A stretch of 32,000 bases of DNA from Sedimentisphaera cyanobacteriorum (GCF_001997385.1 NZ_CP019633.1:2340001-2372000); one strand, 5' to 3'; shown: positions 3,987 to 31,956, numbered from the stretch's first letter. Notes: generated from the sequence alone by a model not told the origin. Numbers and translations are program-made.

Positions 3987-4036
3987 CAGAAGATTCCTGT
4001 TCTAACTTATAGTTTACAAAAAAAGTACAGCACCAC

Positions 4037-6421: not shown

Positions 6422-8731
6422 ATGGCACGTAAATCCCGCCCTTCCGCAAACCCCACACCAGAATTATCCAGAGAGCTTTCTTTGTTCCACATCATAATGA
6501 TGGGGCTGGGTATGATGATAGGTGCCGGTGTGTTTCTCGGGATGGGCATATCCATAGGCGAGGCCGGCCCGGGCGGGGTTGTCCTTACATTCGCTCTGAA
6601 TGGCGTATTCGCAATGCTCACGGCTATGAGCTTCGCTGAGCTGAGTTCTGCAATTCCTCGAGCAGGGGGTGTGTATAATTTCGCGCGTATCGGCTTCGGA
6701 CGCAACGCCAGCTTCCTCGCAGGCTGGATGGAGTGGTTCGCTTCGAGCGTTGCAGGGAGCATGTATGCCCTGACATTTGCTATATACAGCATCCGGTTTA
6801 TCGACGCCCTCGGCTGGCTCAATCCGCTTTATGAATCTTTCGGAAACGATCCGGAAACCGTCATTCTGGTGCTGGAAAGGCTTACAGCAGTAATAACTGC
6901 GGGGCTGTTTGTGTATATAAACTTCAAGGGCTCCTCGGAAACCGGCAAAGCCGGTGCAGTAATTACCGTGGGACAAACCCTTTTCGTTCTTACAATCGGG
7001 ATTTTCGGGGTGGTTGCGGTTATCCAAGACCCCTCAAGACTGCAAAACTTCACGCCTTTTATGCCGGAAGGCTGGTCTAAGCTGCTGGTAACTATGGGCT
7101 TTACTTACGTTGCCTTTGAGGGATATGAAGTGATAGCCCAGGCGGGCGATGAAACGATAGACCCGAAGAAAAACCTGCCCAAGGCAATGATATATTCTGT
7201 TACTATCGTAACGCTTATTTATGTGCTTGTAGCCTTTGCCACAGTGGTATCTGTAAAGGCGGGCAGCGAAGGGGTTGGCCAAATGCCCCCGTGGGAGTGG
7301 ATTGGTCAGTTCAAGGAGAAGGGCTTCGGCGAGGCAGCTGCAAGGCTTATGCCGTTAGGTAATTTCGTGCTCACTCTCGCTGTGATTTTCTCCTCTACAT
7401 CCGCCCTGAACGCCACGATTTACTCGGGCACAAGAGCCTCCTACGCCCTCGGACGCGACGGGATGATGCCCGAATTCTGGTCTCGAATACACGAAAAAAA
7501 CCGAACCCCTTACGGTGCACTTATTGCAACCTCGGTAATCGTAATATTCACTGCTGCATTCCTGCCGACTGAGGATGTGGCATCCAGCGCAAGCATAATG
7601 TTTCTGTTCCTTTTCTTTATGGTGAATCTCTGCGTTATAAAGATTCGCCTCGGGATGGGCGATGAGCTCGAATACGGCTTTATGATGCCGTTTTTCCCTG
7701 TACCGCCGATCCTTGCACTGATTATGCAGGCTGTGCTTGCGGTATGGCTGGTGCATATGAGCGTAATCGCTTGGATAATCGCACCGATCTGGATTCTCGC
7801 AGGCCTTGCGATATACCTGCTGTACTCTAAAGACAGGGTTATCGCGGCAGAACACGAGATAACCGTATTCGATGAACAGAGAAACTATAAGCCCAAAGGG
7901 TATCCGGTGATGGTGGGCCTGGCTGACCCGGAGAACGCAGTGGATCTGGTTAACGGTACATACAAACTCTGCTCTTCAAAGAAGAAGCCGCATGTGGAGC
8001 TGATTCATATGGTGTCCGTACCTGAGCATATATCGCTGTCTGAATCCGAAGAATACACCGAACCGGGAAGAGAAGCCATCACAGAGGCTATGCTCTATCT
8101 CTCAATGCATTTCCCGCTGAATACCACAATCCGCTACTGCAGGAATATCGCAAGGGGGATTGTTTCGGCAGTGAAGGAGAAGAAGGTGAAGCTGCTCGTT
8201 CTCGGCTGGCACGGCAAACCCGAAAACAGGCTTTTCAATATCGGCGCCACAATAGACCCAATCGTTGAGCGGGCGCCCTGCAATGTGGTGATTATTAAGG
8301 GCTCGGAGAAATCCAAGCAGAGATACAAAAGCGTGCTTGTGCCGGTATCAGGCGGGCCAAACTCCGAATACGCAGCAGAAATCGCTAATATTATGGCCGA
8401 AACGGATGCAAAGGTAACTATGCTCAAGGTGGATACCGGACAGAAGCGGGGATTCAAGCTCAGAGAATTCGCACTGAATCAGGCGATGAGGCTAAGACTG
8501 AGGCCGGACAGATTCACAACCAAAACCGTAAAAGCGAAAAGCTCGGTAATAGCTATACTCAGAGAAGCAAAAAATCACGAACTCACCGTCCTCGGGATGA
8601 CTAACCGGCCGCTCGGACAGTTCCGAGGGCTGTCTGTGCCCGAAAAAATAGCTTGCAGAACTTCAAAGCCCGTGGTTATTGCAAAGGCAGGCGGGAAAGT
8701 GGATTCACTGTTCAAAAGAATCTTTTCCTGA
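6422..8731 (+). CDS. APC-family amino acid permease fused to tandem C-terminal universal stress protein (USP) domains
   Basis: 769-aa ORF. The first ~480 aa are polytopic and APC-like (GAGVFLG.., multiple TM helices). The C-terminal ~280 aa show two USP-like repeats (VMVGLADPENA.. and VLVPVSGGPNSEYAAEIA..). Confidence 0.85.
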   Translation: MARKSRPSANPTPELSRELSLFHIIMMGLGMMIGAGVFLGMGISIGEAGPGGVVLTFALNGVFAMLTAMSFAELSSAIPRAGGVYNFARIGFGRNASFLAGWMEWFASSVAGSMYALTFAIYSIRFIDALGWLNPLYESFGNDPETVILVLERLTAVITAGLFVYINFKGSSETGKAGAVITVGQTLFVLTIGIFGVVAVIQDPSRLQNFTPFMPEGWSKLLVTMGFTYVAFEGYEVIAQAGDETIDPKKNLPKAMIYSVTIVTLIYVLVAFATVVSVKAGSEGVGQMPPWEWIGQFKEKGFGEAAARLMPLGNFVLTLAVIFSSTSALNATIYSGTRASYALGRDGMMPEFWSRIHEKNRTPYGALIATSVIVIFTAAFLPTEDVASSASIMFLFLFFMVNLCVIKIRLGMGDELEYGFMMPFFPVPPILALIMQAVLAVWLVHMSVIAWIIAPIWILAGLAIYLLYSKDRVIAAEHEITVFDEQRNYKPKGYPVMVGLADPENAVDLVNGTYKLCSSKKKPHVELIHMVSVPEHISLSESEEYTEPGREAITEAMLYLSMHFPLNTTIRYCRNIARGIVSAVKEKKVKLLVLGWHGKPENRLFNIGATIDPIVERAPCNVVIIKGSEKSKQRYKSVLVPVSGGPNSEYAAEIANIMAETDAKVTMLKVDTGQKRGFKLREFALNQAMRLRLRPDRFTTKTVKAKSSVIAILREAKNHELTVLGMTNRPLGQFRGLSVPEKIACRTSKPVVIAKAGGKVDSLFKRIFS

Positions 8732-8961: not shown

Positions 8962-11208
8962 CTATTTTCGTTTCCTTTTCGATTTTCTTTTTCTGCTATG
9001 TGTGTATGAGCGGCGGTCTTTGGTTTTTGCCTTGAACTTGTGCTTCTTTTCGTGTTTGGGCTTGAGCTCTGTTTTCTTAACGAGCGGCTCGACGGGCAGC
9101 AGAGTAATCTGACGAATCGGGACAACCACATTCGTTATCGTAACATCAATCTCAAGCCCAATCCGCACGCGAACGCCGCTGTGCTGACCGGTAAGACTCT
9201 GGGATTTCTCGTGAAACTCCCATCTGTCCGGCCCGAGCTCCTCAGAGGATATAAAGCCTTCAATCCCGAATTTTTTGCACTGAACGAAGATTCCCTTGCG
9301 GATAACGCCTGAAACGTAGCATTCGAGGGTTTCGCCGACCTTCTTCTCGAGCATCTGAAGAATCAGCACCTTCTTCAGATCCCTCTCAGCATTCTCCGCC
9401 TTGTCTTCTGTACTGCTGATATACCCGCCCAGCTGCACAAGGTCTTCCTCTGAGGGGATTCCCATCTTTTCGCTGAGCCGGCCTTCCTTTAGGTATTTAT
9501 CCAGCAGGCGGTGTATGGTGAGGTCTGCGTATCTTCTGATGGGGCTTGTAAAGTGGGTGTAATGGCGCGAAGAGAGGGCATAATGGCCGATATTCTCAGG
9601 GGAATAAACTGCCTTCTGAAGGCTCCGCAGCACGGCATTATTCACTGCATACTCAAGCCCTGTTCCCCGAACCTTATCGAGAATTTTACGCAGCGATTCT
9701 CTGTCCGCGCTGGAGGGCAGCTTCATCCCGCAAACGCTCACGAAATCCGCAAGCCTCTGGGCGCTGAAAGCATCGGGGTCGGGGTGTATTCTGCGGATAA
9801 ACGGGATATCGAAGCTGTCGAGCAGCCTTGCCACAGCCTCATTCGCCTCCACCATAAACATCTCGATTATCGTATGCGGATAGCTTTGGTCTGCGGGGTT
9901 TGCATCTACCACCTCGCCGTTGTCATTGAGCACAAGGTCAATATCCGGCAAATCCAAATGGATCATACCGTCCTGCTCCCTTCGCTTTTCGATCCTTCGG
10001 GCGAGCATATCCATATCTCTGAGCAGTTTGTAAATTTCCTGCGGGAAATCGAGCTTTTCACCCTGAAGCATCCTGTCTGCATCCCTGTAGGTTAGACGAG
10101 CTGAAGACTGAATCAGGCTGTTTGCGTATTTGGTTTTGCTCTTGATTACCCTGCCTCGCTTGTCGTATGTGATGTAAACGCTCTTGGCGAATCGGGGCTG
10201 ATTTGGCTGCAGAGAGCATACGCCGTTGCTGAGAACTTCAGGCAGCATAGGCAGAACCCTGCCGGGAAGATATACGCTGTTCCCGCGAAGGCCTGCCTCC
10301 TCATCTAGAGCCGAGCCCTGCGTTACAAAGCGGCTGACATCTGCAATATGAATTCCCAGAACGGGATTGTTATCCTCATCAAACTCAAGGCTGATTGCAT
10401 CGTCGTAGTCTTTCGCTGTATCGGGGTCTATCGTGATAAGCTCCTTATCGCGGATATCATCATAGCCCTTGCCCGGCTTGAAATCAACGTCTGCGCATTT
10501 TCTCGCCTGCTCAGTGCATTGTTTATCGAATCCGCTTCGAAGCTCGAAATTCTTGATAGTAGCTTCGATTTCCGTTTCATAAAGCCCCGCTCTGCCTATA
10601 ACATCAATTATCACAGCCTTTCCGGGGGTTTTGTCCTTTGGATACTTGAGCACCTCATAATACACCTTGTCTTCCTGCTTCGCTCCCTTGATTTGAGGAT
10701 CGTCAACGTTGAACGGGGCTTTGAAGAAGTTCCCGTCCGGCACGATCATCCATCTGCCTTCATTTTTATAGAGAGTGCCGGTAGAGGTGGTTTTTGCCCG
10801 CTCAATCACCTTGGTTATCTTGCCGGCAAGCAGGAATTTCTTTCCTTTTCGCCGTCTTCGTATTACCTTCGCCTCCACGATATCACCGTCGCAGGCGCTG
10901 TTTATATTGTGGCGTTCTATGCGGAGATCGCCGTCTCGTGTGGCGGTAAGCGGGGCAACGAAGCCGAATTCCTGCCTTGTTGAGCGGAACTTGCCCTTAA
11001 CAACATCGCCTGAGCTGGGCAGTGTAATGCGGGAGTTTTTCCCGATATCCAGAAGGCCTTCCTCAAGCATATTTTGAACTGTCTGGCTGAACTGCTCTCT
11101 CTGCTGCTTATCGTCAGCACCGAGCATCTCAGCTAACCGATTTTCAGTTACAGGGGAATATTCAGAATTCTTTACGAATTTTAGAATCCTGTCTTTAAGA
11201 CTTTTCAT
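8962..11208 (-). CDS. rnr: ribonuclease R
   Basis: 748-aa ORF with cold-shock-like N-terminal domains, an RNB catalytic domain (GIHIADVSRFV), an S1 domain (ECYVSGVIRKGIFVQ..GIEGFIS) and a Lys/Arg-rich C-terminal tail. Confidence 0.95.
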   Translation of the reverse strand: MKSLKDRILKFVKNSEYSPVTENRLAEMLGADDKQQREQFSQTVQNMLEEGLLDIGKNSRITLPSSGDVVKGKFRSTRQEFGFVAPLTATRDGDLRIERHNINSACDGDIVEAKVIRRRRKGKKFLLAGKITKVIERAKTTSTGTLYKNEGRWMIVPDGNFFKAPFNVDDPQIKGAKQEDKVYYEVLKYPKDKTPGKAVIIDVIGRAGLYETEIEATIKNFELRSGFDKQCTEQARKCADVDFKPGKGYDDIRDKELITIDPDTAKDYDDAISLEFDEDNNPVLGIHIADVSRFVTQGSALDEEAGLRGNSVYLPGRVLPMLPEVLSNGVCSLQPNQPRFAKSVYITYDKRGRVIKSKTKYANSLIQSSARLTYRDADRMLQGEKLDFPQEIYKLLRDMDMLARRIEKRREQDGMIHLDLPDIDLVLNDNGEVVDANPADQSYPHTIIEMFMVEANEAVARLLDSFDIPFIRRIHPDPDAFSAQRLADFVSVCGMKLPSSADRESLRKILDKVRGTGLEYAVNNAVLRSLQKAVYSPENIGHYALSSRHYTHFTSPIRRYADLTIHRLLDKYLKEGRLSEKMGIPSEEDLVQLGGYISSTEDKAENAERDLKKVLILQMLEKKVGETLECYVSGVIRKGIFVQCKKFGIEGFISSEELGPDRWEFHEKSQSLTGQHSGVRVRIGLEIDVTITNVVVPIRQITLLPVEPLVKKTELKPKHEKKHKFKAKTKDRRSYTHSRKRKSKRKRK

Positions 11209-11378: not shown

Positions 11379-11629
11379 TTTTACACAGAGCCTGCGGCGG
11401 ACAGGCGGGAAGTAAAAAGATGGTATTTTTAAACAGGATTGACAGGATTATTGGGCGGGTGATTGGTTTAAACCGAGAAGGACTCGGAGGAACACGAAGG
11501 GTTTTTATTGTAAATTGTTTTACAGCAATGCTTTACCTTTGTAAATTATCTGTGTTATCTGTGGATAATAAATAAATCAAAAAATTATCCCCTTCGTGTG
11601 TTTCGTGGTAAAACAAAACATAAAATTTT
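11379..11629 (+). repeat. mosaic repeat H-T1, copy B
   Basis: The order of motifs is TTTACACAGAG, a degenerate CCTGCGGCGGACAGGC hairpin, AAACAGGATTGACAGGAT, GGGCGGGTGATTGGTTTAAACC, CACGAAGGG, ATCTGTGTTATCTGTGGATAATAAA, then ATCCCCTTCGTGTGTTTCG. It is colinear with 23332-23667. Confidence 0.85.
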
Positions 11630-11683
11630 CCTATCTCTCCATCTCATCCTGTAGATCCTGTTAATCCTGTCCAATATTATATC

Positions 11684-11852
11684 TTCTCCGCTAACTCTCC
11701 GCCTGCGGCGGACAGGCTCAATGTTTAATATTCCTTTTACATCGGTGGTTAAATTATTCTTAATTGAGGCTGTTTTTCTCATCACCGGCCAGAGAGCTGC
11801 CCCGCAATTTGATATTCTGCACCAATGCGGGGGCTGAAGTTTTTACACAGAG
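11684..11852 (+). repeat. mosaic repeat module P, copy B
   Basis: 169 nt differing from 23174-23342 at 6 positions by eye. It contains the CCGCC-TGC-GGCGG hairpin and the CCCCGCA..19 nt..TGCGGGG hairpin, and ends in TTTACACAGAG. Confidence 0.9.
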
Positions 11853-12203: not shown

Positions 12204-12413
12204 ACGCTAACGCTAGGGAAAATCTGAGTATATGCATTTTATGGTCCTGCTGTAATAACAACAAATTCTGTTTAGTTTTTTCCCAATACGCGCAGTTTAT
12301 CCAATCGATACTCACTTTATCGTATCTTATTTGCAATTTCAAGCAAAAATAATTGTAAACATTAAGATTTTATGATAAATTCAGCTGTGATGAATTTTTA
12401 AGCGGTTTTGTAA

Positions 12414-15185: not shown

Positions 15186-15258
15186 GGCCCCATCGTCTAG
15201 TGGACTAGGACATCAGGTTTTCATCCTGAAAACAGGAGTTCGATTCTCCTTGGGGCTA
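15186..15258 (+). tRNA. tRNA-Glu (anticodon UUC)
   Basis: I folded the cloverleaf by hand. The acceptor stem is GGCCCCA/TGGGGCT, the D stem GTCT/GGAC, the anticodon stem TCAGG/CCTGA with loop TTTTCAT (anticodon TTC), and the T arm AGGAG-TTCGATT-CTCCT, with discriminator A. It is 73 nt long and CCA is not encoded. Confidence 0.93.
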
Positions 15259-15301: not shown

Positions 15302-15563
15302 ATTGCAAACTCCTTCAATCACAAGGGTTTACATCACTTCCCCCTTCGCCTTCCTGCTCTTCCCTGCAAGGCCTTGCGGCGGATTTGTGCAGACTTTCTT
15401 CAGCTGGTCTGAACACTGCAGGAAAAGTTCACTATTGCCATCCTTTGGGATTCGCTGGATATATCGCCGATTCTGAAATTCAATGACCGGTGTATTGAGG
15501 TTTGTATTTTAGGGTAAATTTTCTTGACAAATAAACATTTTTTTTATATATTTTATAATCAAA

Positions 15564-16854
15564 ATTTTAATCTGAAGCGCAACTTTTTTCATCGCTCCAG
15601 AGCACTTCATTTGGTGTCCGATATTTTAAACATTTCCTTGGTCGATTATTGATTAAGGCGACAACTTTGTCAAGTTCCTTATCACTAACTTTCTTAAAAT
15701 CAGTTCCCTTAGGGAAGAACTGACGAAGTAGGCCGTTTGTGTTTTCATTAGTTCCACGCTGATAAGAACTGTATGGATCAGCAAAGTAGCAGCATAGGCC
15801 GACTGTTTTTTCCATCTCTTTAAACTGGGCAAACTCCTTGCCATTGTCAACTGTCATCGTTTGACGCTTGGACTTTGGTATCTTCCTGAACAACCTTCGG
15901 GTGGTTTCATTCATGCTCTGGGCACTCTTATCTTTCATCCTGCCAGAGAGCAGATAGCGGCTTGCACGCTCGACATGTGTCGCAATAAATGAACCGTGTC
16001 CTTTACCGCTGACGCTGTCACCCTCCCAATCGCCGAAGCGATTACGCTTGTCAACAACCTCCGGACGCTCACTGATCGAACGTTTGTTCGGTATCCGGCC
16101 ACGCTTGTCATTACTGCCGTGCTTCTTTCGTCGTTTGCGACGGCCTTGACGCAAAAACTTGTAAAAAACACCGCCGTCAACCTTGTCTCGTTTAACCCAA
16201 CTATATATGGTCAAAGGGCTTACACGCATTTGGGCATTATCTGGATAGTCGATTTCAAGACGGCCTGCTATCTGTTCAGGCGAGTGATATTGCTCGAGTT
16301 TACTGCATACTCGACGACGAAGACGGCCATTCTGTTCAAGCCGATATGGCTGCTTGGATGCGGCCCTGCGTTTGCTGTAATATCGCTGGGCCAGGTGGGG
16401 CTTATAATCATGGGTTGAGGACATGTTTCGATTCAACTCACGGCTGATAGTGCCCTTGCTCCTGCCGAGATATATGGCGATTTCCAGTAAATTTTTTCCT
16501 TCAGATCGCATTTTTAGAATGCTTTCTCGCTCATTAATGTTAAGATGTCTATAGCCCATTGCGGTTCCTTAAATAGAGTACTTTTTCGTCAAAAAAACAT
16601 TCTATCGAAAACAACCGTAATGGGTGCTCTTTTTTACTTTTTAAAAGCAATCGCCATCGCTATAATAGATTATCTTGTTGCAGGGGATAGGGCAATGCTG
16701 GAGAGCAACCCGAGCACCGCAACAATCTATACTGGATAGAGGCGGCTTAACCGCCGCCCTTATTCTTTATCTATTCAGGCAGCTAAAAGCGATAAACTCC
16801 AGCCCGCCACGCGGGCTGATTAAATTAGCGAAGCGTTGCGCTTCAAATTAAAAT
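15564..16854 (-). mobile_element. IS30-family insertion sequence (~1.29 kb)
   Basis: The terminal inverted repeats are ATTTTAATCTGAAGCGCAAC (15564-15583) and the reverse complement of 16835-16854 (ATTTTAATTTGAAGCGCAAC), matching at 19/20. The transposase stop codon lies inside the left IR. I see no obvious target-site duplication (flanks ..TCAAA and CTAAG..). Confidence 0.85.
15567..16559 (-). CDS. IS30 family transposase
   Basis: 330-aa ORF with an N-terminal HTH (LEIAIYLGRSKGTISRELNRN) and a DDE integrase-like catalytic core (..GDWEGDSV.., ..TVDNGKEF.., ..RGTNENTNGLLRQFFPKG..). Confidence 0.93.
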   Translation of the reverse strand: MGYRHLNINERESILKMRSEGKNLLEIAIYLGRSKGTISRELNRNMSSTHDYKPHLAQRYYSKRRAASKQPYRLEQNGRLRRRVCSKLEQYHSPEQIAGRLEIDYPDNAQMRVSPLTIYSWVKRDKVDGGVFYKFLRQGRRKRRKKHGSNDKRGRIPNKRSISERPEVVDKRNRFGDWEGDSVSGKGHGSFIATHVERASRYLLSGRMKDKSAQSMNETTRRLFRKIPKSKRQTMTVDNGKEFAQFKEMEKTVGLCCYFADPYSSYQRGTNENTNGLLRQFFPKGTDFKKVSDKELDKVVALINNRPRKCLKYRTPNEVLWSDEKSCASD

Positions 16855-17295
16855 CTAAGTAATAAACGAAATAACGGCGAAATAAGCGGCTCCTTATCCA
16901 TTGAAAACGACGGCACTGTTGAGGTAGGCTCGCATATCTACGCTCCGTACTATTCCGGCACTCTCACTGTTGAAGACGGAAGTGTTTCCAGCGATTATAT
17001 AAAGGTTGACTCTGGAGCGGATATGACAATAAATATTGGACAGGAAGGCTCTATTGAATTTAGGGATGCATCTGTCGCAAACAACATCTCAGATCTTATC
17101 AATAATGCCTTTTCCGGCGAGGGCAGCATTAATTTGAATATCTGGAATGATGGTTCGTATGTTGACTATGCCACATTAACCGACGGCAGCGATTATAAGG
17201 TAGAGAACGGAACGTTGTTTGTTCCAGAACCTGCCACGATGGCTATGCTTGGTTTAGGCGGCCTTGGGCTCTTGCGCAGCAGACGCAAATCATAA
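16855..17295 (+). pseudogene. 5'-truncated PEP-CTERM protein gene (C-terminal remnant)
   Basis: The reading frame is open from the first nucleotide after the IS30 right IR (my translation: LSNKRNNGEISGSLSIENDGTVEVGSHIYAPYYSGTLTVEDG..) through to the PEP-CTERM sorting signal VPEPATMAMLGLGGLGLLRSRRKS. There is no signal peptide, and no matching 5' part lies on the other side of the IS. The track's 17023 ATG is internal. Confidence 0.7.
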
Positions 17296-17391: not shown

Positions 17392-18231
17392 ATGTGCCAG
17401 AAGAAATATGAAGAACTCTGCGAGATTATCAGGAAGTCCGGAAAGATGTGCGTGAGCTTTTCGGGGGGAGTTGATTCAAGCTTTCTCGCATACACCTGCC
17501 GGAAAGTGCTTGGAAGAAATAATATGCTCTGCGTTTACGTGAGGGGGAAGGCCGCTTCCCGGAAGCAAACGGATAACGCCAGAAAATCAGCAGAGAAATA
17601 CGATTTCCCGCTCGAGATAATAGATGTTGATGAGCTTGAGGTTGAGCAGGTTCGAAGGGGAGACCCCAGACGCTGCTATTTCTGCAAAAAGAATATCCTC
17701 AGCCTTATAGGCAAAAAAGCAGGTGAGCAGGAATTCAATGTTATTGCCTGCGGGAGCAACCTCGACGACCTCTCAGACTACCGTCCCGGAAGGGATGCGG
17801 TAAAGGAGATGGGGGTGAGCGAGCCTCTGCTCGAGGCCAAGCTTACAAAAGATGAAATCCGCTCCCTCAGCCGCAGATTCGGCCTTGATACAGCGGATAT
17901 GCCTTCAGAACCCTGCCTTCTCTCAAGAATCCCGTACAACCGTCCAGCTGATGAGCGGATGCTCAGGCAGGTGGAGCAGGCGGAGAAAGTCCTCGGCGAT
18001 TTCGGCTTCGATGTATGCCGAGTGCGGCATTACGGGATCACTGCAAAAATCGAGATCCCTCCCCAGAAATTCGAACAGTACAGGAAAAATGAGCCTCAGA
18101 TCAGAGAGAAAATCCTCGAGACCGGTTTCTCTGAGGCTGTTTTGGACGAAAACGGCTTCCGCTCAGGATCCTTAAACGATTCACTCCGCATCAAAAACAA
18201 ACAAAGTCATGAAAAAATGAAAAAATCTTAG
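17392..18231 (+). CDS. larE: LarE-like ATP-dependent sulfur transferase / PP-loop ATP pyrophosphatase (TIGR00268-like)
   Basis: 279-aa ORF with the PP-loop SFSGGVDSS and a conserved Cys in EPCLLSRIPY, corresponding to the LarE sacrificial cysteine region. No larA/B/C genes lie nearby. Confidence 0.75.
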   Translation: MCQKKYEELCEIIRKSGKMCVSFSGGVDSSFLAYTCRKVLGRNNMLCVYVRGKAASRKQTDNARKSAEKYDFPLEIIDVDELEVEQVRRGDPRRCYFCKKNILSLIGKKAGEQEFNVIACGSNLDDLSDYRPGRDAVKEMGVSEPLLEAKLTKDEIRSLSRRFGLDTADMPSEPCLLSRIPYNRPADERMLRQVEQAEKVLGDFGFDVCRVRHYGITAKIEIPPQKFEQYRKNEPQIREKILETGFSEAVLDENGFRSGSLNDSLRIKNKQSHEKMKKS

Positions 18232-18262
18232 CCTAAGCCCATCCTCAAAAACTGTTCAGTAC

Positions 18263-18291
18263 TTTAAAGAGCAATTGATTTTGCGTATAAT
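18263..18291 (+). promoter_or_regulatory. candidate promoter for the Mrr-like gene
   Basis: TTTAAA (18263-18268), a 17-nt spacer, then TATAAT (18286-18291) in an AT-rich spacer. GGAG lies 8 nt upstream of the ATG at 18399. Confidence 0.25.
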
Positions 18292-18398
18292 AACCTTGAA
18301 GGAAAAGAACGAAACTTGAAACAGTGAAAATACAAAGAATTACATGTAAATCACTAAATATATAAACTAAACCGGCTAAAGTGTAATGGAGATATTTT

Positions 18399-19430
18399 AT
18401 GGCTATATGGTTGGTAAGAGCAGGTAAAGGCGGCGCAAGGGAAAGTTGGGCTTTAGAGAAAGATGAAGTAATTATAGGTTGGGATGGAATGCCGGATCTT
18501 AGCCAATTCAAAGACAAAGACCAGATGCTTGATAAGCTCAAAGAGGTTTATCCTGATAAAAAAATTCAAGCCCTTTACAATCACCGAAGTCAGTTATGGG
18601 CTTTTGCTAAACGTATCGTAAAAGGTGATTTAGTCGTATTGCCTTTGAAAAGTCAGGATGCTATCGCCGTAGGTGAAGTAACCGGTGATTATAATTACCG
18701 GCCTGATAATCCAAGTTTCACCAAACATGCACGAGGGGTTAAATGGATAAAGCAGGACATACCGAGAAGTAGATTTGATCAGGATTTGCTATATTCCCTC
18801 GGAGCATTTATGACGGTATGTCAAATAAAACGCAATAATGCGGAAGAGCGTATAAAAGCTATAGTTAAAGGAGGTAAATTGCCGCCTGCCACAGGGTTCG
18901 AAGACGATGAAGATGTAAGCAATGAGGACGGCATAAAAAACGTAAATATCGAGGATTACGCTTCGACTCAGATACGTTCATATATTGCACAAAAATTTAC
19001 GGGACACCAATTAGCAGACTTGATTAACGCTATATTAGAGGCGCAGGGATATGTTACCGAAGTTTCTCCGCCGGGACCGGATGGAGGCGTTGACATAATT
19101 GCAGGACGCGGGCCGATGGGTTTTGATCCTCCATGGCTTGCTTGCCAAGTGAAAAGTGGCAACAATCAGCAGGATGTAAAAGTTATGAGAGAACTTAAGG
19201 GAGTAATGCAGGAATTCAAAGCAGAACAGGGATTATTTGTTTCCTGGGGTGGATTTACTCGTGAAGCAATAAAGGAAGCGAGAAAAAACTTTTTTGAGTT
19301 GAGGCTTTGGGATGCCGGAGAGGTTGTTGAAAACCTCTTGGGTTATTATGAAAAATTTGCGGACGAAATAAAGGCGGATTTACCTCTAAAAAGAGTTTGG
19401 TTGCTGGTTCAAGAAGATGATGAAATATGA
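18399..19430 (+). CDS. Mrr-like (PD-(D/E)xK, Mrr_cat) restriction endonuclease with an uncharacterised N-terminal domain
   Basis: 343-aa ORF. The C-terminal part has GPDGGVDIIAG ... LACQVKSG, a D...QxK motif as in the Mrr catalytic domain. The N-terminal ~160 aa (MAIWLVRAGKGG.., GDLVVLPLK.., AVGEVTGDYNY) are not the Mrr_N winged helix. The gene is visibly more AT-rich than its neighbours. Confidence 0.75.
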   Translation: MAIWLVRAGKGGARESWALEKDEVIIGWDGMPDLSQFKDKDQMLDKLKEVYPDKKIQALYNHRSQLWAFAKRIVKGDLVVLPLKSQDAIAVGEVTGDYNYRPDNPSFTKHARGVKWIKQDIPRSRFDQDLLYSLGAFMTVCQIKRNNAEERIKAIVKGGKLPPATGFEDDEDVSNEDGIKNVNIEDYASTQIRSYIAQKFTGHQLADLINAILEAQGYVTEVSPPGPDGGVDIIAGRGPMGFDPPWLACQVKSGNNQQDVKVMRELKGVMQEFKAEQGLFVSWGGFTREAIKEARKNFFELRLWDAGEVVENLLGYYEKFADEIKADLPLKRVWLLVQEDDEI

Positions 19431-19734
19431 CACCGTTAGGCGGTGAAAGATGTGCCGTACAAAACCAGCTGATTGACCAAACGCAGGCTGACCTTTGACG
19501 CCTCCTTGTTGAGCAAAGATGTAAATAAACTCCCTCGTATTATTTTCGATAATTGCTTCGTCTGAAGTTTCCGAACCCCTGCAAGATGTTCAAAACCAAG
19601 CTGAAAGATTATTTCTGTAAAATTAATTTTTGTATGAATAGACGTTATAGTTTTCGGCCTCATAGCGACATTTATATTCATGTATTTTCTTAATTCTATC
19701 CAATCTTCGCATATTTCGATTTCGCCGCCGATGA

Positions 19735-22495: not shown

Positions 22496-22675
22496 TTTGC
22501 TTTTCCTCAATAGATTCAAAATGAAAAACAATATTATAAACAAATTTCAATGCTTGCAAAACCATTCAGGGCTATCTCCGAGAGTTTGAAAAGTTTTTTG
22601 ATCCGCAGAATGAGCAGCAGCGGTTCACCCCTTAGCATTTTAATAATCCCTTCAACGGGATAGACAGGTTGTTTT

Positions 22676-23143
22676 TTAGACGGGATTAACGGGATTTACA
22701 GGATTTTTCAGCGGGTAATTTGTTTGAACCACGTGGGATTGGTTTAAACCGCGAAGTGCTCGGAGGAACACGAAGATTTTTTAATTGGTTTAAACCACGA
22801 GCAGCACTGAGATATTTCAGCCACTGAGAAACGCTAAGAAGCACTAAGGGGATATTTCTAGACAGAATTTTTAAAGTTCAAGGCAATGATAAGGGGAAAG
22901 TTTTTCTTCTGTAGCTGCCGCTGACTCTCCGCCTGCGACCGACAGGCTCAATGTTTAACATCTCCCGTACTACAGCGGAGTCCGCCGTGGCGGACCCGCT
23001 AGGCATTCTTTTAGAAAAGATTTTTCGCTTACCGCCGGCTCTTCACGTTTCGCTATCCTAGCGGGGAGCTTGCGCTCCTCCGCTGTATGACGCTGCATTA
23101 TTAAGCAGCGAACCGCAGGCTCAGTCCGTAAATGCTGCGGCCA
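22676..23143 (+). repeat. mosaic repeat H-T2 (long repeat), copy C, the most complete copy
   Basis: The order of motifs is TAGACGGGATTAACGGGATTTACAGGAT, CAGCGGGTAATTTG, two GGTTTAAACC palindromes, CTGAGATATTTCAGCCACTGAG, CAAGGCAATGATAAGGGGAAAG, then the hairpins at 22974-23000, 23060-23084 and 23091-23110. It matches 4543-5010 (inverted) and 11853-12203. Confidence 0.9.
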
Positions 23144-23173
23144 GTCTATAGTAGATACTGGCTGTCCGCTTAT

Positions 23174-23342
23174 TTCTCCGATACCTCTCCGCCTGCGGCG
23201 GACAGGCTCAATGTTTAATATTCCTTTTACATCGGTGGTTAAATTATTCTTAATTGAGGCTGTTTTGCTCATCAACGGCCAGAGAGCTGCCCCGCAATTT
23301 GATATTCTGCACTAATGCGGGAGCTGAAGTTTTTACACAGAG
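23174..23342 (+). repeat. mosaic repeat module P, copy C
   Basis: Differs from 11684-11852 at 6 of 169 positions by eye. A partial third copy lies at 31957-32000. Confidence 0.9.
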
Positions 23343-23667
23343 GTATCGAAGGAAACGGAGAGGATATTTTTTAGACAGGATTAACAGGATTGACAGGATA
23401 GATATTTGATAAGGGAAAGGCGGAGAAAGATTTTTGGGCGGGTAATTTTTTTAATCCTCGTGGGATTGGTTTAAACCGCGAAGGGCTCGAAGGGCACGAA
23501 GATTTCTGTTAGTTATTTAATAGAAGGGCTTTACATTCATAAAATTATCTGTGTCATCTGTGTCATCTGTGGATTAAAAAATTAATTCAGACCATATCCC
23601 CTTCGTGTGTTTCGCGGGCCTCGTGGTAAAAAAACATAATATCTGTGGATAATAAATTTCGCTGCGG
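23332..23667 (+). repeat. mosaic repeat H-T1, copy C, the most complete copy
   Basis: The order of motifs is TTTACACAGAG, CGAAGGAAACGGAGAGG, three NACAGGAT units (23371-23399), GGGCGGGTAATTT, GGGATTGGTTTAAACCGCGAAGGGCTCGAAGGGCACGAAG, three ATCTGTG units (23547-23574), ATCCCCTTCGTGTGTTTCG, then ATCTGTGGATAATAAATTTCGCTGCGG. It ends 130 nt before the valS ATG. Confidence 0.88.
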
Positions 23668-23797
23668 ATTAAATATTTTTAATCGGTTTATTCGAGCCAT
23701 ACATGGAGGACGCAGCAGTCGGTTATTGCTTTACACAAACGGGTAATTTGATACCATTACGCTTAAAATTATCAGCTTGAATTGGTACAGGTTAATT

Positions 23798-26668
23798 ATG
23801 GCAAAAGAACTATCGAAAGTTTATAACCCCCGAGAAGTAGAGCAGCTTGCAGAAAAGCTTTGGCTTGATGCCGGCAGCTACCATACAGAACCGCCTTCAA
23901 AGGGCGGAAAAGACAGCAAACCATACACAATCGTAATCCCGCCGCCTAACGTAACGGGAATGCTGCACATGGGGCATGCCCTTAACAACACGCTGCAGGA
24001 TGTGATTATCCGATTCAAACGTATGCAGGGCTTCAACACCCTCTGGATGCCCGGTACAGACCATGCCGGCATCGCCACGCAGAGCGTAGTAGAGAAAAAG
24101 CTGCACTCTGAGCATGGCAAAACCCGCCACGATGTGGGGCGTGAAGGCCTTGTGGAGATGATATGGGAGTGGAAACAGCAGTATGGCGACAGAATCCTCG
24201 AGCAGCTCAAGGGCATCGGGGCCAGCTGCGACTGGCAGAGAACACGCTTCACCCTCGATGATATGTGCGCAAGGGCAGTTCGCAGAACATTCTACAAGCT
24301 CTTCAGCGACAAGCTTATTTACAAAGGCAAGCGTCTTGTAAACTGGGACCCGCACCTTCAAACAGCAGTGGCTGATGATGAGGTTGTGCATAAAACAGTG
24401 CAGGGAAATTTCTACTATATGAAATATCCGCTCTCGGACGGCAGCCGAGAAGTAATGATCGCTACTACTCGTCCTGAAACAATGCTAGGCGATACGGCTG
24501 TTGCTGTAAACCCCAAGGATGAACGCGCCGAGGAGCTGATTGGGAAGATGATAGACCTCCCGCTCACAGGGAGAAAAATCCCGATAATAGCAGATGATTA
24601 CGTAAAGCGCGGCGAGGGAACCGGCTTTCTGAAGGTTACCCCTGCCCACGACCCGAACGATTATGAAATCGGCCTGCGCCACGATCTCGAGAGAATCAAC
24701 ATCCTCACACCCGAGGGATACATCAACGAAAACGGAGGCGACTTCGAAGGGCTCGATAGATTCGAGGCACGAAAAAGGATAGTTGAAAGGCTTCAGGACG
24801 AGGGATTATTAGAGAAAATTGAGCCGAGGGAGCAGGAAGTTGGCCACAGCGACCGCAGCGGCGTTATAATAGAGCCGTATCTCTCCGATCAGTGGTTCGT
24901 AAGCGTTGCCCCGCTTGCAGCCCCTGCGATTGAAGTACTCAGAGAAAGGCGTTTGAAGTTCCATCCGAAGCGCTATGAAAGCGCATACGCCGACTGGCTT
25001 GAGGGCATTAGAGACTGGTGCATTAGCAGGCAGCTTTGGTGGGGGCACAGAATCCCGATTTGGAGCGTGGAGCTGGAGGTTGAAAACCCGATTGAGAACC
25101 CGGATGCAGACCCGATATCCGATGAAATCAAATCTGCCCTGAGCAGCAAAACCGGTGTAAGCTGGCTGGAATTCACAGAAGACCTCGGCGAGTTTGCCGT
25201 GCAGATATTCCCCGATGAAGAAGACCCTGCAAAGGTGCGCATTGATATATGCATAGCAGAGAAAGACCGCACAGCAGAAGACCTGCTCGAGAAGCACGGT
25301 TTCCGGAGAGACCCGGACGTATTGGATACGTGGTTCAGCTCTGCGCTTTGGCCTTTCAGCACTCTCGGCTGGCCTGAACAGACCGAAGAGCTCAAATTCT
25401 ACTACCCCACTGATCTTCTGATTACCTCACGCGATATCATTACGCTCTGGGTTTCGAGAATGGTAATGATGGGGCTCTACAATATGGGCGAGGTTCCGTT
25501 CAGCGATGTTTTCATACACGGGAAAATCCTCGACGGCAACGGCGAAACGATGAGCAAAAGCAAGGGCAACGGCATAGACCCGCTTGCAATTATAGAGCAT
25601 TACGGCGCAGATGCGATGCGTTTCAGCCTCGCTAATATGACCACAGAGAATCAGGATATGCGTATGCCCGTCAAGCAGGACGAGCAGGGCAGGAATATCA
25701 GCAGCAAGTTTGATATAGGCAGGAATTTCTGCAACAAGCTCTGGAATGCCTCCCGTTTTGCAATGATGAACCTCGAGAATATCAGCGCAGATGAGTTTGA
25801 TGCCGATAAGATGGATATGACAGACCGCTGGATACTCTCCCGCCTTGAAGATACAGTTTGCTATGTAACCGATATGCTGGGTGAGTATAAGTTCAGCGAG
25901 CCGGCAGGCGCGATTTATCGCTTCTTCTGGAACGACCTCTGCGACTGGTATCTGGAATGGGGCAAGCCGCGGATGAAGGATGACAGCGAAAGGCCGATAT
26001 TCCAGAACGTGCTTGCGTTTTTACTCGATAATACGCTCCGCCTTATGCACCCGTTTATGCCTTTCATAACCGAGGGCATATTCCAGACCCTCGCTGAATA
26101 CGCCCCTTCAAGGCCGCTGAAAGGGCTCGTGAAAAGGAGCGGGGAAGAGCTGCTTATAGAAGCCGCTTGGCCGGGCAGCGAGCTGGAGCAGTTCCGCAAT
26201 CCCGATATAGAGCAGCAGATAAATGAAGTGCAAACGATTGTTAAGAGCATTCGTGAGGTGAGAAGCCAGTACAATATCGCCCCGAAGCAGAAAATCAAGG
26301 CAGGCATCTCCGCACCCGAGAGCTATCAGCCGCTATACGAAAAATGCAAAGAGCTTATCGTAAATCTCGCAGGGCTCGAGAGCCTTGAGATAGCCGAAAA
26401 CATAGAGCGGCAGGGAACTACCGCCACAAACGTTATCGGCGAGATTGAAGTTTTCGTGCACGGCGTGATAGACCCTGATGCTGAGAAAAAACGCCTTGAA
26501 AAGCAGAAGCAGGATCTTGTTAAAGCTGCAAAGGGCGTGGAAGGAAGGCTTTCAAACGAGAGCTACGTTAAGAATGCCCCGCCTGCAATCGTTCAGGACT
26601 CCAGAAATAAGCTCGCAGAGCTGAAAGAACAGATTGAGGCTGTTGATAAGCTTCTCGAAGAGCTCTGA
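23798..26668 (+). CDS. valS: valine--tRNA ligase
   Basis: Class I aaRS motifs are present: PPNVTGMLHMGHALN (HIGH) and TMSKSKGN (KMSKS). It also has an editing domain and a C-terminal coiled coil. I place the start at ATG 23798 (MAKELSKVYNP), because the track's 23777 start is a TTG. Confidence 0.95.
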   Translation: MAKELSKVYNPREVEQLAEKLWLDAGSYHTEPPSKGGKDSKPYTIVIPPPNVTGMLHMGHALNNTLQDVIIRFKRMQGFNTLWMPGTDHAGIATQSVVEKKLHSEHGKTRHDVGREGLVEMIWEWKQQYGDRILEQLKGIGASCDWQRTRFTLDDMCARAVRRTFYKLFSDKLIYKGKRLVNWDPHLQTAVADDEVVHKTVQGNFYYMKYPLSDGSREVMIATTRPETMLGDTAVAVNPKDERAEELIGKMIDLPLTGRKIPIIADDYVKRGEGTGFLKVTPAHDPNDYEIGLRHDLERINILTPEGYINENGGDFEGLDRFEARKRIVERLQDEGLLEKIEPREQEVGHSDRSGVIIEPYLSDQWFVSVAPLAAPAIEVLRERRLKFHPKRYESAYADWLEGIRDWCISRQLWWGHRIPIWSVELEVENPIENPDADPISDEIKSALSSKTGVSWLEFTEDLGEFAVQIFPDEEDPAKVRIDICIAEKDRTAEDLLEKHGFRRDPDVLDTWFSSALWPFSTLGWPEQTEELKFYYPTDLLITSRDIITLWVSRMVMMGLYNMGEVPFSDVFIHGKILDGNGETMSKSKGNGIDPLAIIEHYGADAMRFSLANMTTENQDMRMPVKQDEQGRNISSKFDIGRNFCNKLWNASRFAMMNLENISADEFDADKMDMTDRWILSRLEDTVCYVTDMLGEYKFSEPAGAIYRFFWNDLCDWYLEWGKPRMKDDSERPIFQNVLAFLLDNTLRLMHPFMPFITEGIFQTLAEYAPSRPLKGLVKRSGEELLIEAAWPGSELEQFRNPDIEQQINEVQTIVKSIREVRSQYNIAPKQKIKAGISAPESYQPLYEKCKELIVNLAGLESLEIAENIERQGTTATNVIGEIEVFVHGVIDPDAEKKRLEKQKQDLVKAAKGVEGRLSNESYVKNAPPAIVQDSRNKLAELKEQIEAVDKLLEEL

Positions 26669-26721: not shown

Positions 26722-26808
26722 CGGATTTGCAAAACGCTTAAATCTCACCTCGAACTCATTTTATGCAGCAGCTCAGAGCAGAAATCGAAGGTATCTCGAC
26801 TAATTAAC

Positions 26809-28344
26809 TAGTCGCCCCTGAAAAAGTTTAAAATTTTCCTTAAATTCTTTCCTGATAATGGTTTATATGATTGAAAAGCTTTCGAGATATGGTATAATAT
26901 TGCAAGTGTTTATCTTACATCTATCAAAACATTGCAATATTGGGACAAAATAATGAAGGCAAAAAACAATAAAGCAGGCTTACTCTTTCAGCAGCCATTA
27001 AAACCTCTTGTAAATCCTGATCACTCTTTAGTCCAACTCTCAGAGGTTGTCAACTGGTCTCGCTTTGAAGAGAAGTTTGGCAGTTTATACAGTCCTGATT
27101 CAGGCAGGCCGGCCAAGCCGATTCGCCTGATGGTCGGCCTTCAGTATCTCAAGTACACTTTCAATCTCAGCGATGAAGCAATCGTTGCCGGCTGGGTTGA
27201 GAATCCTTACTGGCAGTATTTCTGCGGCGAAAGATACTTCCAGCACGAGCCTCCTATTGATCCAACCAGTATGACTAAGTGGCGTAATAAGGTAAAATCT
27301 GATGGTCTTGAAGAGCTGCTCGAAGAAACTATCAAAGCCGGCTTGAAGCTTAAGGTTATCAAAAAGAACGATTTCAACAAGCTCGTTGCAGATACAACCG
27401 TTCAGCAGAAGAACATCACTTATCCGACCGACGCAAAACTCTGCCACAAACTGCGCATTAAGCTTGTAGATCTTGCAAAAGCATCAAAACTCCAACTTCG
27501 CCAAAGCTACGAAAGGGTTGGAAAAAGGGCGTATGTAATGCAGGGCAGGTATCGACGTGCAAGACAGTTCAAAAGAGCTAAAAAAGAAGTGAAGAAATTA
27601 AGGAACTACCTGCGGCGAATTACGAAAGAGGTCGAGCGGAATATAGCAGGCAATGAGCAGTTAAGAATAATTTTTGATACATTGCTTCAAGCCGCTAAGA
27701 AGCTTTTAGCCCAGACAAAGAAAAGCAAAAATAAGCTCTACAGTATTCACGAACCTCACGTCTGCTGCATTGGGAAAGGCAAAAGCCACAAGAAATATGA
27801 GTTTGGAAATAAGGTTGGAATTGTAACTACTGCCAAGAATAATTTTATCGTAGGAGCGTTGGGCTTTGAAGGAAACCCTTATGATGGCCATACTCTTCGG
27901 GCTAATCTGAAGCAGACAATGAATTTAATCGGGAGAGAAAAGCTTGGAGATGTTTATGTTGATGGAGGATACAAGAAACATGGCTGCGAAGATATTGGAA
28001 ATGTTGAAATTGTAGAAAAGGGCTGGCGAAAAAAGAAACGAAGTATCAAGAGGTGGATTAAGAGAAGATCGAGCATAGAACCAACGATAGGCCACCTCAA
28101 AGAAGACAACAGGTTGGGAAGAAACTTCTTGAAAGGTGTAGAAGGGGACAAAATGAACGCCCTCGGCAGCGCTTTTGGGTACAATATGCGTAAACTTCTA
28201 GAGAAGTTTACTTTTGCCTATATTTTTATGCTTAAAATTATTGAATTTTACAGAAATTTGGCAATGAAAAGCAAATTAAAGACTCGATTAGCCTGATATA
28301 TTTTTTTAGTTTCCCCAAAATCATTGATTTTTCAGGAACGACTA
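26809..28344 (+). mobile_element. IS5-family insertion sequence (~1.54 kb)
   Basis: The terminal inverted repeats are TAGTCGCCCCTGAAAAA (26809-26825) and the reverse complement of 28328-28344 (TAGTCGTTCCTGAAAAA), matching at 15/17. It has a single transposase ORF and is more AT-rich than the surroundings. Confidence 0.8.
26953..28296 (+). CDS. IS5 family transposase
   Basis: The N-terminal DUF772-type region (LVNPDHSLVQLSEVVNWSRFEEKFGSLY..GRPAKPIRLMVGLQYLKYTFNLSDEAIVAGWVENPYWQYFCG) and the DDE domain are typical of long IS5-family transposases. I place the start at ATG 26953, because the track's 26932 start is a TTG. Confidence 0.9.
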   Translation: MKAKNNKAGLLFQQPLKPLVNPDHSLVQLSEVVNWSRFEEKFGSLYSPDSGRPAKPIRLMVGLQYLKYTFNLSDEAIVAGWVENPYWQYFCGERYFQHEPPIDPTSMTKWRNKVKSDGLEELLEETIKAGLKLKVIKKNDFNKLVADTTVQQKNITYPTDAKLCHKLRIKLVDLAKASKLQLRQSYERVGKRAYVMQGRYRRARQFKRAKKEVKKLRNYLRRITKEVERNIAGNEQLRIIFDTLLQAAKKLLAQTKKSKNKLYSIHEPHVCCIGKGKSHKKYEFGNKVGIVTTAKNNFIVGALGFEGNPYDGHTLRANLKQTMNLIGREKLGDVYVDGGYKKHGCEDIGNVEIVEKGWRKKKRSIKRWIKRRSSIEPTIGHLKEDNRLGRNFLKGVEGDKMNALGSAFGYNMRKLLEKFTFAYIFMLKIIEFYRNLAMKSKLKTRLA

Positions 28345-28600
28345 TTTATTAACCGCTAATTTTAACTAATTTCCGCTAAGATGGTTTCTTCGTGGTGAAT
28401 AATTCATTTTAAAACCCCGGAGGGCGCTAAGGGCACGAAGGGTTTTTGTAAATTATTTTATAACAAGGGCTTAGATTTTTAAAAATCTGCGTCATCCGTG
28501 CCATCTGTGGATAATAAATTTCGCTGCGGGCTCGAAAGATCAACTATCCGCTTGTTGTCCGCCTTCGGCGGACTGGCTCAGTTGATAGATAATAAATTCA
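28345..28600 (+). repeat. mosaic repeat region D (degenerate H words, partial T1, REP-like nested hairpin)
   Basis: The order of motifs is CCGCTAAG, CGGAGGGCGCTAAGGGCACGAAGGG, ATCTGCGTCATCCGTGCCATCTGTGGATAATAAATTTCGCTGCGGG (cf. 23641-23667), then the GTCCGCC-TTC-GGCGGAC hairpin (28557-28573) nested inside ATCAACT/AGTTGAT (28539-28545 / 28580-28586). Confidence 0.75.
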
Positions 28601-30349: not shown

Positions 30350-30510
30350 TTGTAATCCTTAATCAAGTATTTGATGTTCTATAAGTGTATGTCAGCCGGG
30401 TTAATTTTTTTCATTTAATTTTATCGAACGAAAGCCAATTTATGCTTTAAAGGCGGGAATAGATGCCTGCCTTGTGTCAAGCAGGGTTATCTTTTGGGGC
30501 GGTTAGATAG

Positions 30511-30780
30511 TTTAGAACCACGAAATTTAAACCAATCCCCCCAACCAAAAAATTGTGTTTTGTTTTATCACTAAGGGGCCGAAACACACGAAGGGGATAT
30601 GGTTTTGATTGTTTTTTTATCCACAGATGACACAGATGGCACAGATTTTATTTGAATGTAAGCGATTGATGTAAAACAATTTATAACATAAATTTTCGAG
30701 CCCTTTGAGCACTTCGTGATTTTAACAAATTACCCGCCCAAAAAATCCTGCCAATCCTATCGAAGGTATTATTGAAATGC
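30511..30780 (-). repeat. mosaic repeat H-T1, copy E (inverted, degenerate head)
   Basis: The reverse complement reads ATAGGATTGGCAGGAT, TTTTGGGCGGGTAATTTG, CACGAAGTGCTC.., AATCTGTGCCATCTGTGTCATCTGTGGAT, ATCCCCTTCGTGTGTTTCGG, GGGGATTGGTTTAAATTTCGTGG. Its gene-proximal end lies ~160 nt upstream of the sulfatase ATG. Confidence 0.8.
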
Positions 30781-31493: not shown

Positions 31494-31660
31494 GATAAAC
31501 ACCTTTCACAATTCTCTAAAAAAACAATTAAACATACTTCTTTTGAGTTAACAAAACTGAATTGAAAAATCAAATTAATTTTAAGTATTTTTCCTGATTT
31601 TCTAAATTTTTCATGCGGCTTAAAGTGATTGGAGGTAAATCTTTGCCGCACTTTTTACCT

Positions 31661-31956
31661 AAAATAGGGGACAGTTACCTAATAATTGTTTTCAACTGAT
31701 GTGAGTTTGCAGCTTCTTTGATTATTTTTTAGAAAACCAATTTCTGATTGTTCACAGGCTTTTAATCGGCATTTTTTTCTGTTTAATTGCTTCATCAAGG
31801 CTTTAAACCGAGCAAATATGCTTGTTGAGCGGCAGCTGCTCTTGACGAACCGCTTGCCGCCTCATCTGAGCCAAATTCTTATCCCGGCCAATTCCCTATC
31901 TCATTATTTTATAAAGCTTTTTACTATTAAAAATAGGTAACTGTTCCCCTATTTTT
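31661..31956 (-). mobile_element. MITE-like non-autonomous element, copy 2 (296 bp, inverted relative to copy 1)
   Basis: It has the same TIRs (AAAATAGGGGACAGTTACCT at 31661-31680 and AGGTAACTGTTCCCCTATTTTT at 31935-31956). By eye it shows about 14 substitutions plus a ~25-nt indel relative to 4272-4542. Confidence 0.8.

Follow-up and report, generated by a model that had tools for sequence, protein, structure and literature searches.

T1, a repeat present in five copies in a 32-kb stretch of a Sedimentisphaera genome (Phycisphaerae, Planctomycetota; the whole stretch is referred to here as the window), is probably a lineage-specific, non-coding mosaic element of the MITE/BIME kind that has gathered in permissive divergent spacers, outside the zones occupied by native promoters. 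As an interspersed repeat it belongs to a known kind of element, and its link to hom, valS and a sulfatase gene, upstream of which three of the copies lie, is not demonstrated as functional. A preliminary description had offered two readings of this placement, a shared promoter, leader or transcription-factor landing pad, and a MITE-like unit that prefers promoter-proximal DNA.

Copies and anatomy of T1

The five copies previously listed (4159-4271, minus strand; 11495-11629, plus; 23495-23667, plus; 28425-28530, plus; 30545-30720, minus) were confirmed by alignment in both place and polarity, and are designated A to E (Table 1). The T1 core ATCTGTGNNATCTGTGGA was matched at 5 sites, with 2 additional overlapping registers, against 0.01 expected in the 32-kb window, and the 19-nt arm ATCCCCTTCGTGTGTTTCG was found exactly in copies A, B, C and E, with 0 expected. 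Copies ranged from ~95 to 295 nt, and all five were non-coding and located in annotated intergenic spacers. Pairwise identity among the copies was 73–83%; despite this divergence, a 20-nt run in the right arm was invariant, an outcome reached by 79 of 20,000 simulations, and the block CATCTGTGGA was also invariant across copies.

The arms consist of two imperfect inverted arrays of CTTCGTG-type 9-nt units, and enclose an AT-rich core of ~100 nt that ends in two or three ATCTGTG nonamers, the last of which is the DnaA-box-like TGTGGATAA; the two to three tandem 9-nt units previously ascribed to each core were present in the copies. The left arm, when read in reverse, is CCGCGAAGG GCTCGAAGG GCACGAAG, the core units are ATCTGTGTC ATCTGTGTC ATCTGTGGAT, and the right arm units are CTTCGTGTG TTTCGCGGG CCTCGTGG, followed by TAAAA. 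The short inverted repeat CACGAAGGG...CCCCTTCGTG, reported as bracketing the core, was intact in copy B only, and was altered to CACGAAGAT in copy C and CTCGAAAAT in copy E, copy A having no left arm and copy D no right arm. Pairing between the arms was good in B and C, and degenerate in E.

Copies B, C and E extended beyond the earlier limits: on the upstream side they share GGGCGGGTRATT, GGTTTAAA (GTTAAAA in E) and an array of ACAGGAT units. A downstream TAAAAC-AAAACA tail was common to copies A, B and E, with a looser form in C. The fuller copies were nested within another pair of ATCCTGT-type arrays, copy B lying inside inverted ATCCTGT-NN arrays.

Table 1. Coordinates of the T1 copies and their parts, the conserved upstream blocks, the insertion sequences of the window and the array-bearing loci of other genomes
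Feature	Position	Strand	Remarks
T1 copy A, truncated	4170-4262	-	no left arm; abuts separate MITE-like element at 4271/4272
Copy A, GCTTACATTCA box	4252-4262	-	
Copy A, two ATCTGTG nonamers	4227-4247	-	ending TTTTCCACA
Copy A, right arm	4198-4216	-	ATCCCCTTCGTGTGTTTCG
Copy A, tail	4170-4187	-	
T1 copy B and outer modules	11432-11671	+	arrays nested, inverted
Copy B, ACAGGAT array	11432-11448	+	
Copy B, GGGCGGGTGATT	11453-11464	+	
Copy B, GGTTTAAACC	11465-11474	+	
Copy B, end of left arm	11493-11502	+	CACGAAGGGT
Copy B, core	11548-11568	+	ATCTGTGTTATCTGTGGATAA; perfect TTATCCACA at 11560-11568
Copy B, right arm	11587-11605	+	
Copy B, tail	11607-11623	+	
Copy B, outer ATCCTGT array	11646-11670	+	
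T1 copy C and outer modules	23374-23667	+	
Copy C, ACAGGAT array	23374-23399	+	
Copy C, GGGCGGGTAATT	23436-23447	+	
Copy C, GGTTTAAACC	23468-23477	+	
Copy C, left arm	23475-23504	+	
Copy C, GCTTTACATTCA	23528-23539	+	
Copy C, three ATCTGTG nonamers	23547-23576	+	
Copy C, right arm	23596-23614	+	continuing to CCTCGTGG at ~23626
Copy C, extra half-core	23641-23667	+	ATCTGTGGATAATAAATTTCGCTGCGG; same sequence as end of copy D
T1 copy D, truncated	28409-28529	+	no right arm
Copy D, left arm	28434-28443	+	position of CACGAAGGGT
Copy D, core	28494-28514	+	ATCCGTGCCATCTGTGGATAA
T1 copy E	30553-30761	-	locus of the preliminary description
Copy E, ATAGGATTGGCAGGAT array	30745-30761	-	
Copy E, GGGCGGGTAATT	30728-30739	-	
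Copy E, degenerate left arm	30691-30700	-	position of CTCGAAAATT
Copy E, GCTTACATTCA	30653-30663	-	
Copy E, three ATCTGTG nonamers	30617-30646	-	TTATCCACA at 30617-30625
Copy E, right arm	30580-30598	-	
Copy E, tail	30553-30569	-	
Native hom upstream block	3987-4087	-	91% over 101 nt vs S. salicampi
Native valS upstream block	23719-23797	+	98.7% over 79 nt vs S. salicampi
Native sulfatase upstream block	30350-30420	-	~65–75 nt visibly conserved with S. salicampi
IS30-like element	15544-16874		HTH_38 and rve; ORF 15567-16559; 40-nt imperfect TIRs; beside tRNA-Glu 15186-15258
IS5/IS1182-like element	26805-28348		DUF772 and DDE_Tnp_1; ORF 26932-28296; 21-nt TIRs
Array-bearing loci	L001-L120 and L128-L143		examples: L071 5100-5400, L056 1960-2300, L111 6420-6720, L142 1490-1570

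Comparison with the sister species

Orthologues of hom, valS and the sulfatase gene in S. salicampi encode proteins with 96%, 90% and 91% amino acid identity, respectively, and T1 was absent at all three orthologous loci (L124, L127, L144). The T1 arm, GGTTTAAACC and all nonamer arrays were likewise absent from 57.6 kb of S. salicampi sequence and ~58 kb of three other relatives; at the density of the window, which has five T1 copies and over a dozen arrays, ~9 T1 copies would be expected in the S. salicampi sequence compared.

The DNA adjoining each gene start was conserved between the two species (Table 1), and in each conserved block a co-oriented σ70-like match was found: TTGAAA-16-TAAGAT at hom (4064-4037), the sole co-oriented match there in a consensus scan and recognisable also in a MAG whose protein is 69% identical, TTTACA-16-TACCAT extended by TG at valS (23730-23757, consensus match), and CTGACA-18-AATACT at the sulfatase gene (30395-30366, consensus match). 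The co-oriented matches nearest each gene were located between T1 and the start codon, outside T1. Since the sister species has the same native promoters and no T1, T1 appears not to be a shared promoter, and the three genes appear to keep their own predicted promoters. The retention of the proximal DNA with its σ70-like matches, at three loci that have no T1 in S. salicampi, speaks against the earlier suggestion of a shared promoter, leader or landing pad. Absence from the sister species makes T1 dispensable for the ancestral promoters, and leaves room for a modulating effect at present.

The CTCTCCGCCTGCGGCGGACAGG hairpin and some other modules were present in S. salicampi; since these are there and T1 is not, T1 represents a younger, lineage-specific layer. 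A hairpin module, CTCTCCGCCTGCGGCGGACAGGCTCA, was located in the window at 11688-11731, 22918-22961, 23178-23221 and 28548-28591, and S. salicampi also has this module and its relatives, as several copies with 70–92% identity (L144 ~8390-8500, 12370-12405, 19458-19557); unlike T1, it is an older repeat family of both species.

Relative to S. salicampi, gene order changed at hom on the side facing T1, and at valS and the sulfatase gene on either side, all three T1 loci compared being synteny breakpoints, and the empty sites of S. salicampi could not be aligned beyond the promoter block. The S. salicampi spacer upstream of valS (L127 ~9630-9710) was seen, on reading by eye, to hold an apparent tRNA gene on the opposite strand, the same spacer in the window being occupied by mosaic repeats instead.

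Placement of T1 relative to genes

The earlier naming of the downstream genes as hom, valS and a sulfatase gene was upheld by Pfam, and the distances from T1 were correct: hom is 172 nt away and the sulfatase gene 195 nt, and valS, measured to its ATG at 23798, 130 nt. Further genes in the window included ask, apgM, an ELM1-like gene, a permease gene, rnr, a comF-like gene, gpsA and a gene for a PEP-CTERM protein (Pfam). The claim that T1 shares the polarity of its nearest gene was true of copies A, C and E; copy B was directed away from rnr, 287 nt from its start at 11208, and copy D, located between the 3' ends of the IS5-like transposase gene and the sulfatase gene, was upstream of no gene. 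For five copies in 32 kb, no orientation bias relative to the nearest gene start was found beyond chance (P(≥3 of 4) = 0.31). Since copies A and C are in divergent spacers, either polarity agrees with one neighbour.

Self-comparison of the window showed repeats of multiple families in three spacers of 1.1–1.25 kb each (hom/ELM1-like, rnr/comF and gpsA/valS), at a coverage of 78%, 51% and 71%, respectively; coverage was 63% in the last spacer, and eleven other spacers had no repeats. Because each of the three long spacers is divergent, whatever lies at an edge of one has a gene downstream of it. A stretch of ~130–250 nt was free of repeats beside 5 of the 6 gene starts flanking these spacers, the exception being an ORF start at 5098 with 29 repeat-free nt, where the TTG start is uncertain; T1 was the proximal module at 2 of the 6. 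The preference of T1 for promoter-proximal DNA suggested earlier is more aptly described as a gathering of all repeat families in long divergent spacers, with the proximal DNA kept clear at 5 of 6 starts.

Signs of mobility

Its short length, under ~500 nt, its non-coding sequence, multiple copies, imperfect inverted arms, and presence here with absence in the sister species are consistent with T1 being a MITE-like unit, as had been proposed; against this stand the lack of a visible target-site duplication, truncated copies joined to other modules, and the lack of an insertion sequence with matching ends. No direct repeat was seen at the boundaries of any copy, and the repeat modules that flank B, C and E leave no clean insertion boundary to be defined. 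A search of the 32-kb window for a transposase with T1-matching ends found none; the TIRs of the IS5/IS1182-like element (TAACTAGTCGCCCCTGAAAAA) and the IS30-like element (GTTGCGCTTCA..) are both unrelated to the ends of T1. The left arm was far less conserved than the right, and such unequal conservation is atypical of a transposon that depends on its TIRs. In JGI metagenomes the exact 19-nt arm had only 3 matches, all attributable to chance and in coding-like DNA, and BLAST of T1 against plasmids gave no match.

Nonamer arrays in other phyla

Genome contigs were scanned with the core pattern (16 specified bases), giving at least 120 loci from many phyla, the source genome not being among those listed. 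Since ~280 chance matches were estimated, the raw count is uninformative, and only features not imposed by the pattern were used. Among the matches listed, free positions were strongly skewed in composition, with A in 72% of cases at -1 and in 86% at +8, and T in 69% at +18; a third unit was visible upstream, and TTCGYG-type arrays were 6.8-fold enriched within 200 nt. An inverted partner array was present on the 5' side in 67 of the 148 arrays listed, versus 4 on the GGA side, with interiors of 1–227 nt. For the same listed matches, the GGA end lay at a median distance of 12–23 nt from the neighbouring gene where spacers were tandem or convergent, and of 51 nt in nine divergent cases, and the other array end was 42–66 nt from a gene in the same spacers. 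The neighbours of the 148 listed arrays were mutually unrelated, with no recurrent transposase or regulon member among them.

The units, of the AATCTGTG-N, TTCGTG and ATCCTGT types, form outward-facing, often nested inverted arrays in intergenic spacers, and BLAST with a consensus hairpin gave matches in unannotated spacers only. Nested outer and inner arrays were found in Asticcacaulis biprosthecium and several MAGs, and A. biprosthecium C19 and Persicobacter are among the array-bearing genomes; CTTCGTGG followed by TAAAA was found in L056, in an arrangement identical to T1, and ATCCTGT arrays in two further loci. The hairpin occupies the same convergent spacer in each of two Pyrinomonadaceae MAGs, one hairpin lies 11 nt past a stop codon in Bacteroides finegoldii, and the motif is present in fourteen IMG/VR contigs. 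In two cases outward-facing arrays were paired across 0.8 and 4.7 kb, and the DNA between them contained ordinary or phage genes and no transposase. Arrays were found in at least eight phyla (Acidobacteriota, Planctomycetota, Verrucomicrobiota, Lentisphaerota, Chloroflexota, Bacteroidota, Proteobacteria and Spirochaetota), in one archaeal MAG and in phage contigs, and were lacking in close relatives of the source organism.

The cross-phylum set of nonamers, their polar nested geometry and their patchy distribution matched nothing found in Rfam or the literature; a literature search found the 13–16-mers in no paper except as coincidental primer matches, and by keyword only general REP/MITE papers. 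It is conceivable, and tentatively suggested, that T1 is a local composite belonging to a superfamily of nonamer-array hairpins, undescribed so far, that spreads horizontally. Its marks, put forward with the same reserve, would be a small shared set of 9-nt units, a last unit ending in GTGG or GCGG, and outward-facing inverted pairs that are often nested. Such a cross-phylum pattern, with absence from a sister species, would imply that these 9-mers are recognised by some enzyme or by a universal factor of the host.

Relation to known repeat families

Like the BIME/REP elements of enterobacteria, T1 is short, non-coding, extragenic and multi-copy, built as a mosaic of few motifs in alternating orientation, with hairpins, variable copy composition and species-specific presence. 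REP units are single palindromes of 20–40 nt tagged with GTAG or CGTC (PMC3733652). T1 arms, unlike these, consist of tandem 9-nt units ending in GTGG or GCGG (..CGTGG/..CGCGG, then TAAAA) with no such tag, and the nonamer elements are not members of the GTAG/CGTC REP superfamilies. REPs are mostly located at gene 3' ends, whereas T1 and its companions are in divergent 5' spacers.

The Correia MITEs of Neisseria are likewise ~100–300 nt long, with no ORF, inverted ends and possible nesting, differ in presence between close relatives, and are often upstream of genes. T1 differs from Correia-type MITEs in having no target-site duplication, in its imperfect and unequally conserved ends, and in the absence of a parent insertion sequence from the window. 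Correia elements demonstrably carry promoters and IHF sites, of which no equivalent is demonstrable for T1.

The BOX elements of S. pneumoniae and the BrickBuilt MITE of P. gingivalis, whose units are roughly 20 nt long, resemble T1 as assemblies of short modules with internal tandem repeats of varying number. Their module sequences and unit lengths are different, and they are confined to a genus, whereas the 9-nt units of T1 cross phyla. The P. gingivalis MITE contains the BrickBuilt minisatellite (PMC4596501).

Alternative roles of T1

The view of T1 as a dispersed pad for DnaA or another DNA-binding protein, with a putative high-affinity TTATCCACA box and weaker same-sense 9-mers titrating the protein or nucleating its assembly near gene starts, is considered unlikely, and the perfect boxes make a DnaA-related role a candidate lead. 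All 4 perfect TTATCCACA boxes of the 32-kb window are in T1 copies B to E, copy A having TTTTCCACA; TTWTNCACA gave 12 matches in the window versus 2.3 expected, 9 of them in repeat modules, and the neighbouring units GATGACACA in T1 and GATTACACA in the cross-phylum consensus fit a relaxed box at 7 of 9 positions. T1 resembles the DnaA-box clusters known outside oriC (datA, DARS, and those of Bacillus subtilis) in pairing a consensus TTATCCACA with adjacent weaker boxes in intergenic DNA, and DnaA, being universal in bacteria, could explain the recurrence of the motif across phyla; an ATCTGTG array was also found fused to three DnaA boxes in one IMG/VR contig. The lead suffers from poor conservation at positions 8 and 9, the last two of the box (AA after TGTGGAT), which carry 0.1–0.2 bits across phyla, the conserved unit being AATCTGTG, and from the geometry, since the units abut at a 9-bp period, whereas DnaA arrays in E. 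coli oriC are phased at ~11 bp. Five copies in 32 kb, inside a mobile-looking repeat absent from the sister species, are also unlike these clusters, the TTCGTG and ATCCTGT nonamer types are not DnaA-box-like, and a sister species would be expected to retain a function that acts through a universal host factor.

In IMG/VR, an ATCTGTG array with three DnaA boxes (GTTATCCACAGG...AATCTGTGGATAACTTGTGGATAAGT) was noted at L134 ~5650-5750 and L135 ~3090-3190; this fusion may be a replication origin, and may hint at array and boxes acting together.

T1 is improbable as a mobile promoter, UP-like element or transcription-factor pad acting on hom, valS and the sulfatase gene, whether to drive or to tune their expression. 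Three of five copies are nearest to, and co-oriented with, a gene start, the AT-rich core contains TTTACA-like and GATAAT/TATAAT-like hexamers, and invariant short blocks lie within variable linkers, as expected of binding sites. Scanning of the three loci found no σ70-like match at a fixed position inside T1 and no co-oriented site in copies A and E; copy C has one weak, unshared site, TTAATA-17-TAAAAT. The box TGGATAATAAA, described earlier as resembling an extended -10 element, was exact in B, D and the extra half-core of C, and inexact in A, E and the main core of C; in that role its TG would be one base out of register, and a -35 partner is absent. The reading is further opposed by the conserved proximal DNA of the same genes in S. 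salicampi, the orientation of copy B, the position of copy D between two 3' ends, and the orientation statistic (p = 0.31, not significant). A promoter or landing-pad role as a secondary effect is conceivable, and not supported by any specific evidence.

A role for T1 as transcribed RNA, its arm hairpin serving as insulator, terminator or stabiliser, or the whole as a small RNA, is similarly hard to sustain. Arm pairing in copies C and B gave folds better than shuffles (z = -3.1 and -1.8), and nonamer hairpins of other phyla are often directly after stop codons or between convergent genes; copy E folded no better than shuffles (z = +0.4), copies A and D are short of one arm, and only the arms pair, with no consistent fold across copies. 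No hairpin with a T-run terminator was found in T1 in the three loci scanned, compensatory pairs were 1 of 27 among three sequences, and single arrays across phyla showed no clear strand bias (32 co-directional versus 20 opposed to transcription, among the matches listed). Rfam gave no T1 match even at E ≤ 1: searching the window with Rfam 15 found only a tRNA at gathering score, and nothing at E ≤ 1 in 22500-23800, and 18 array-bearing loci of other phyla gave nothing except tRNAs.

Other candidates were rejected: a replication origin (GC skew tracks the coding strand, and the window has no replication genes), CRP, LexA and PhoB boxes and Chi or uptake sequences (poor fits), MraZ repeats (10-nt period, poor fit), the elemental RNA polymerase pause consensus (G-10 unmatched), IS630-type TA duplications (TA after GGA in only ~42%), and a coding reading of the 9-nt repeats (poor fit).

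Other features of the window

A separate MITE-like element of ~270–295 nt, with a perfect 20-bp TIR AAATAGGGGACAGTTACCTA, was present at 4272-4543 and 31660-31955 in opposite orientations, the first of these adjoining T1 copy A at 4271/4272. Its TIR contains GGGGACAG, which fits GGGGWSAS, a motif reported for TIRs flanking Y1 'TIRYT' transposase genes (PMC3733652). Inverted repeats of 414 nt with 96% identity (4545-4958 and 22703-23116) bracket 17.7 kb, and this pair is a ready substrate for inversion; further long modules, of 197 nt at 94% and 151 nt at 94% identity, were common to the three big spacers. Neither insertion sequence (Table 1) resembles T1. Downstream of the IS30-like element, 17392-19430 is a region of low GC (0.40 at 18–19 kb) with genes for a PP-loop ATPase-like protein and for a restriction endonuclease of the Mrr type; the region is possibly a small defence islet of acquired origin.

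Implications

Under the mosaic-repeat reading favoured here, T1 or its modules would have multiplied in this Sedimentisphaera species after the split from S. salicampi, either through transposition driven in trans by an enzyme encoded elsewhere, or through insertion into, or recombination between, hairpin modules already in place. Most likely, a propagating or binding protein would recognise the 20-nt right arm and CATCTGTGGA. Copies would survive only where harmless, in long divergent spacers and distal to the ~65–120 nt that hold the native promoter and 5' leader; such survival outside the promoter zone would by itself give the 130–200 nt spacing and the appearance of sitting before genes. 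The main effect on the genome is probably structural, the repeats providing homology for rearrangement.

A repeat located before unrelated genes need not be regulatory; here the sister genome shows promoters that are older than the repeat, and the spacing between T1 and genes would reflect where insertions are tolerated. If the nonamer arrays form a single superfamily, a mobilising or binding activity that works across a very broad range of hosts, and has so far gone unrecognised, would be implied, and the arrays would then serve as a marker for recent invasions, intergenic hairpins and rearrangement hot spots in MAG-rich phyla.
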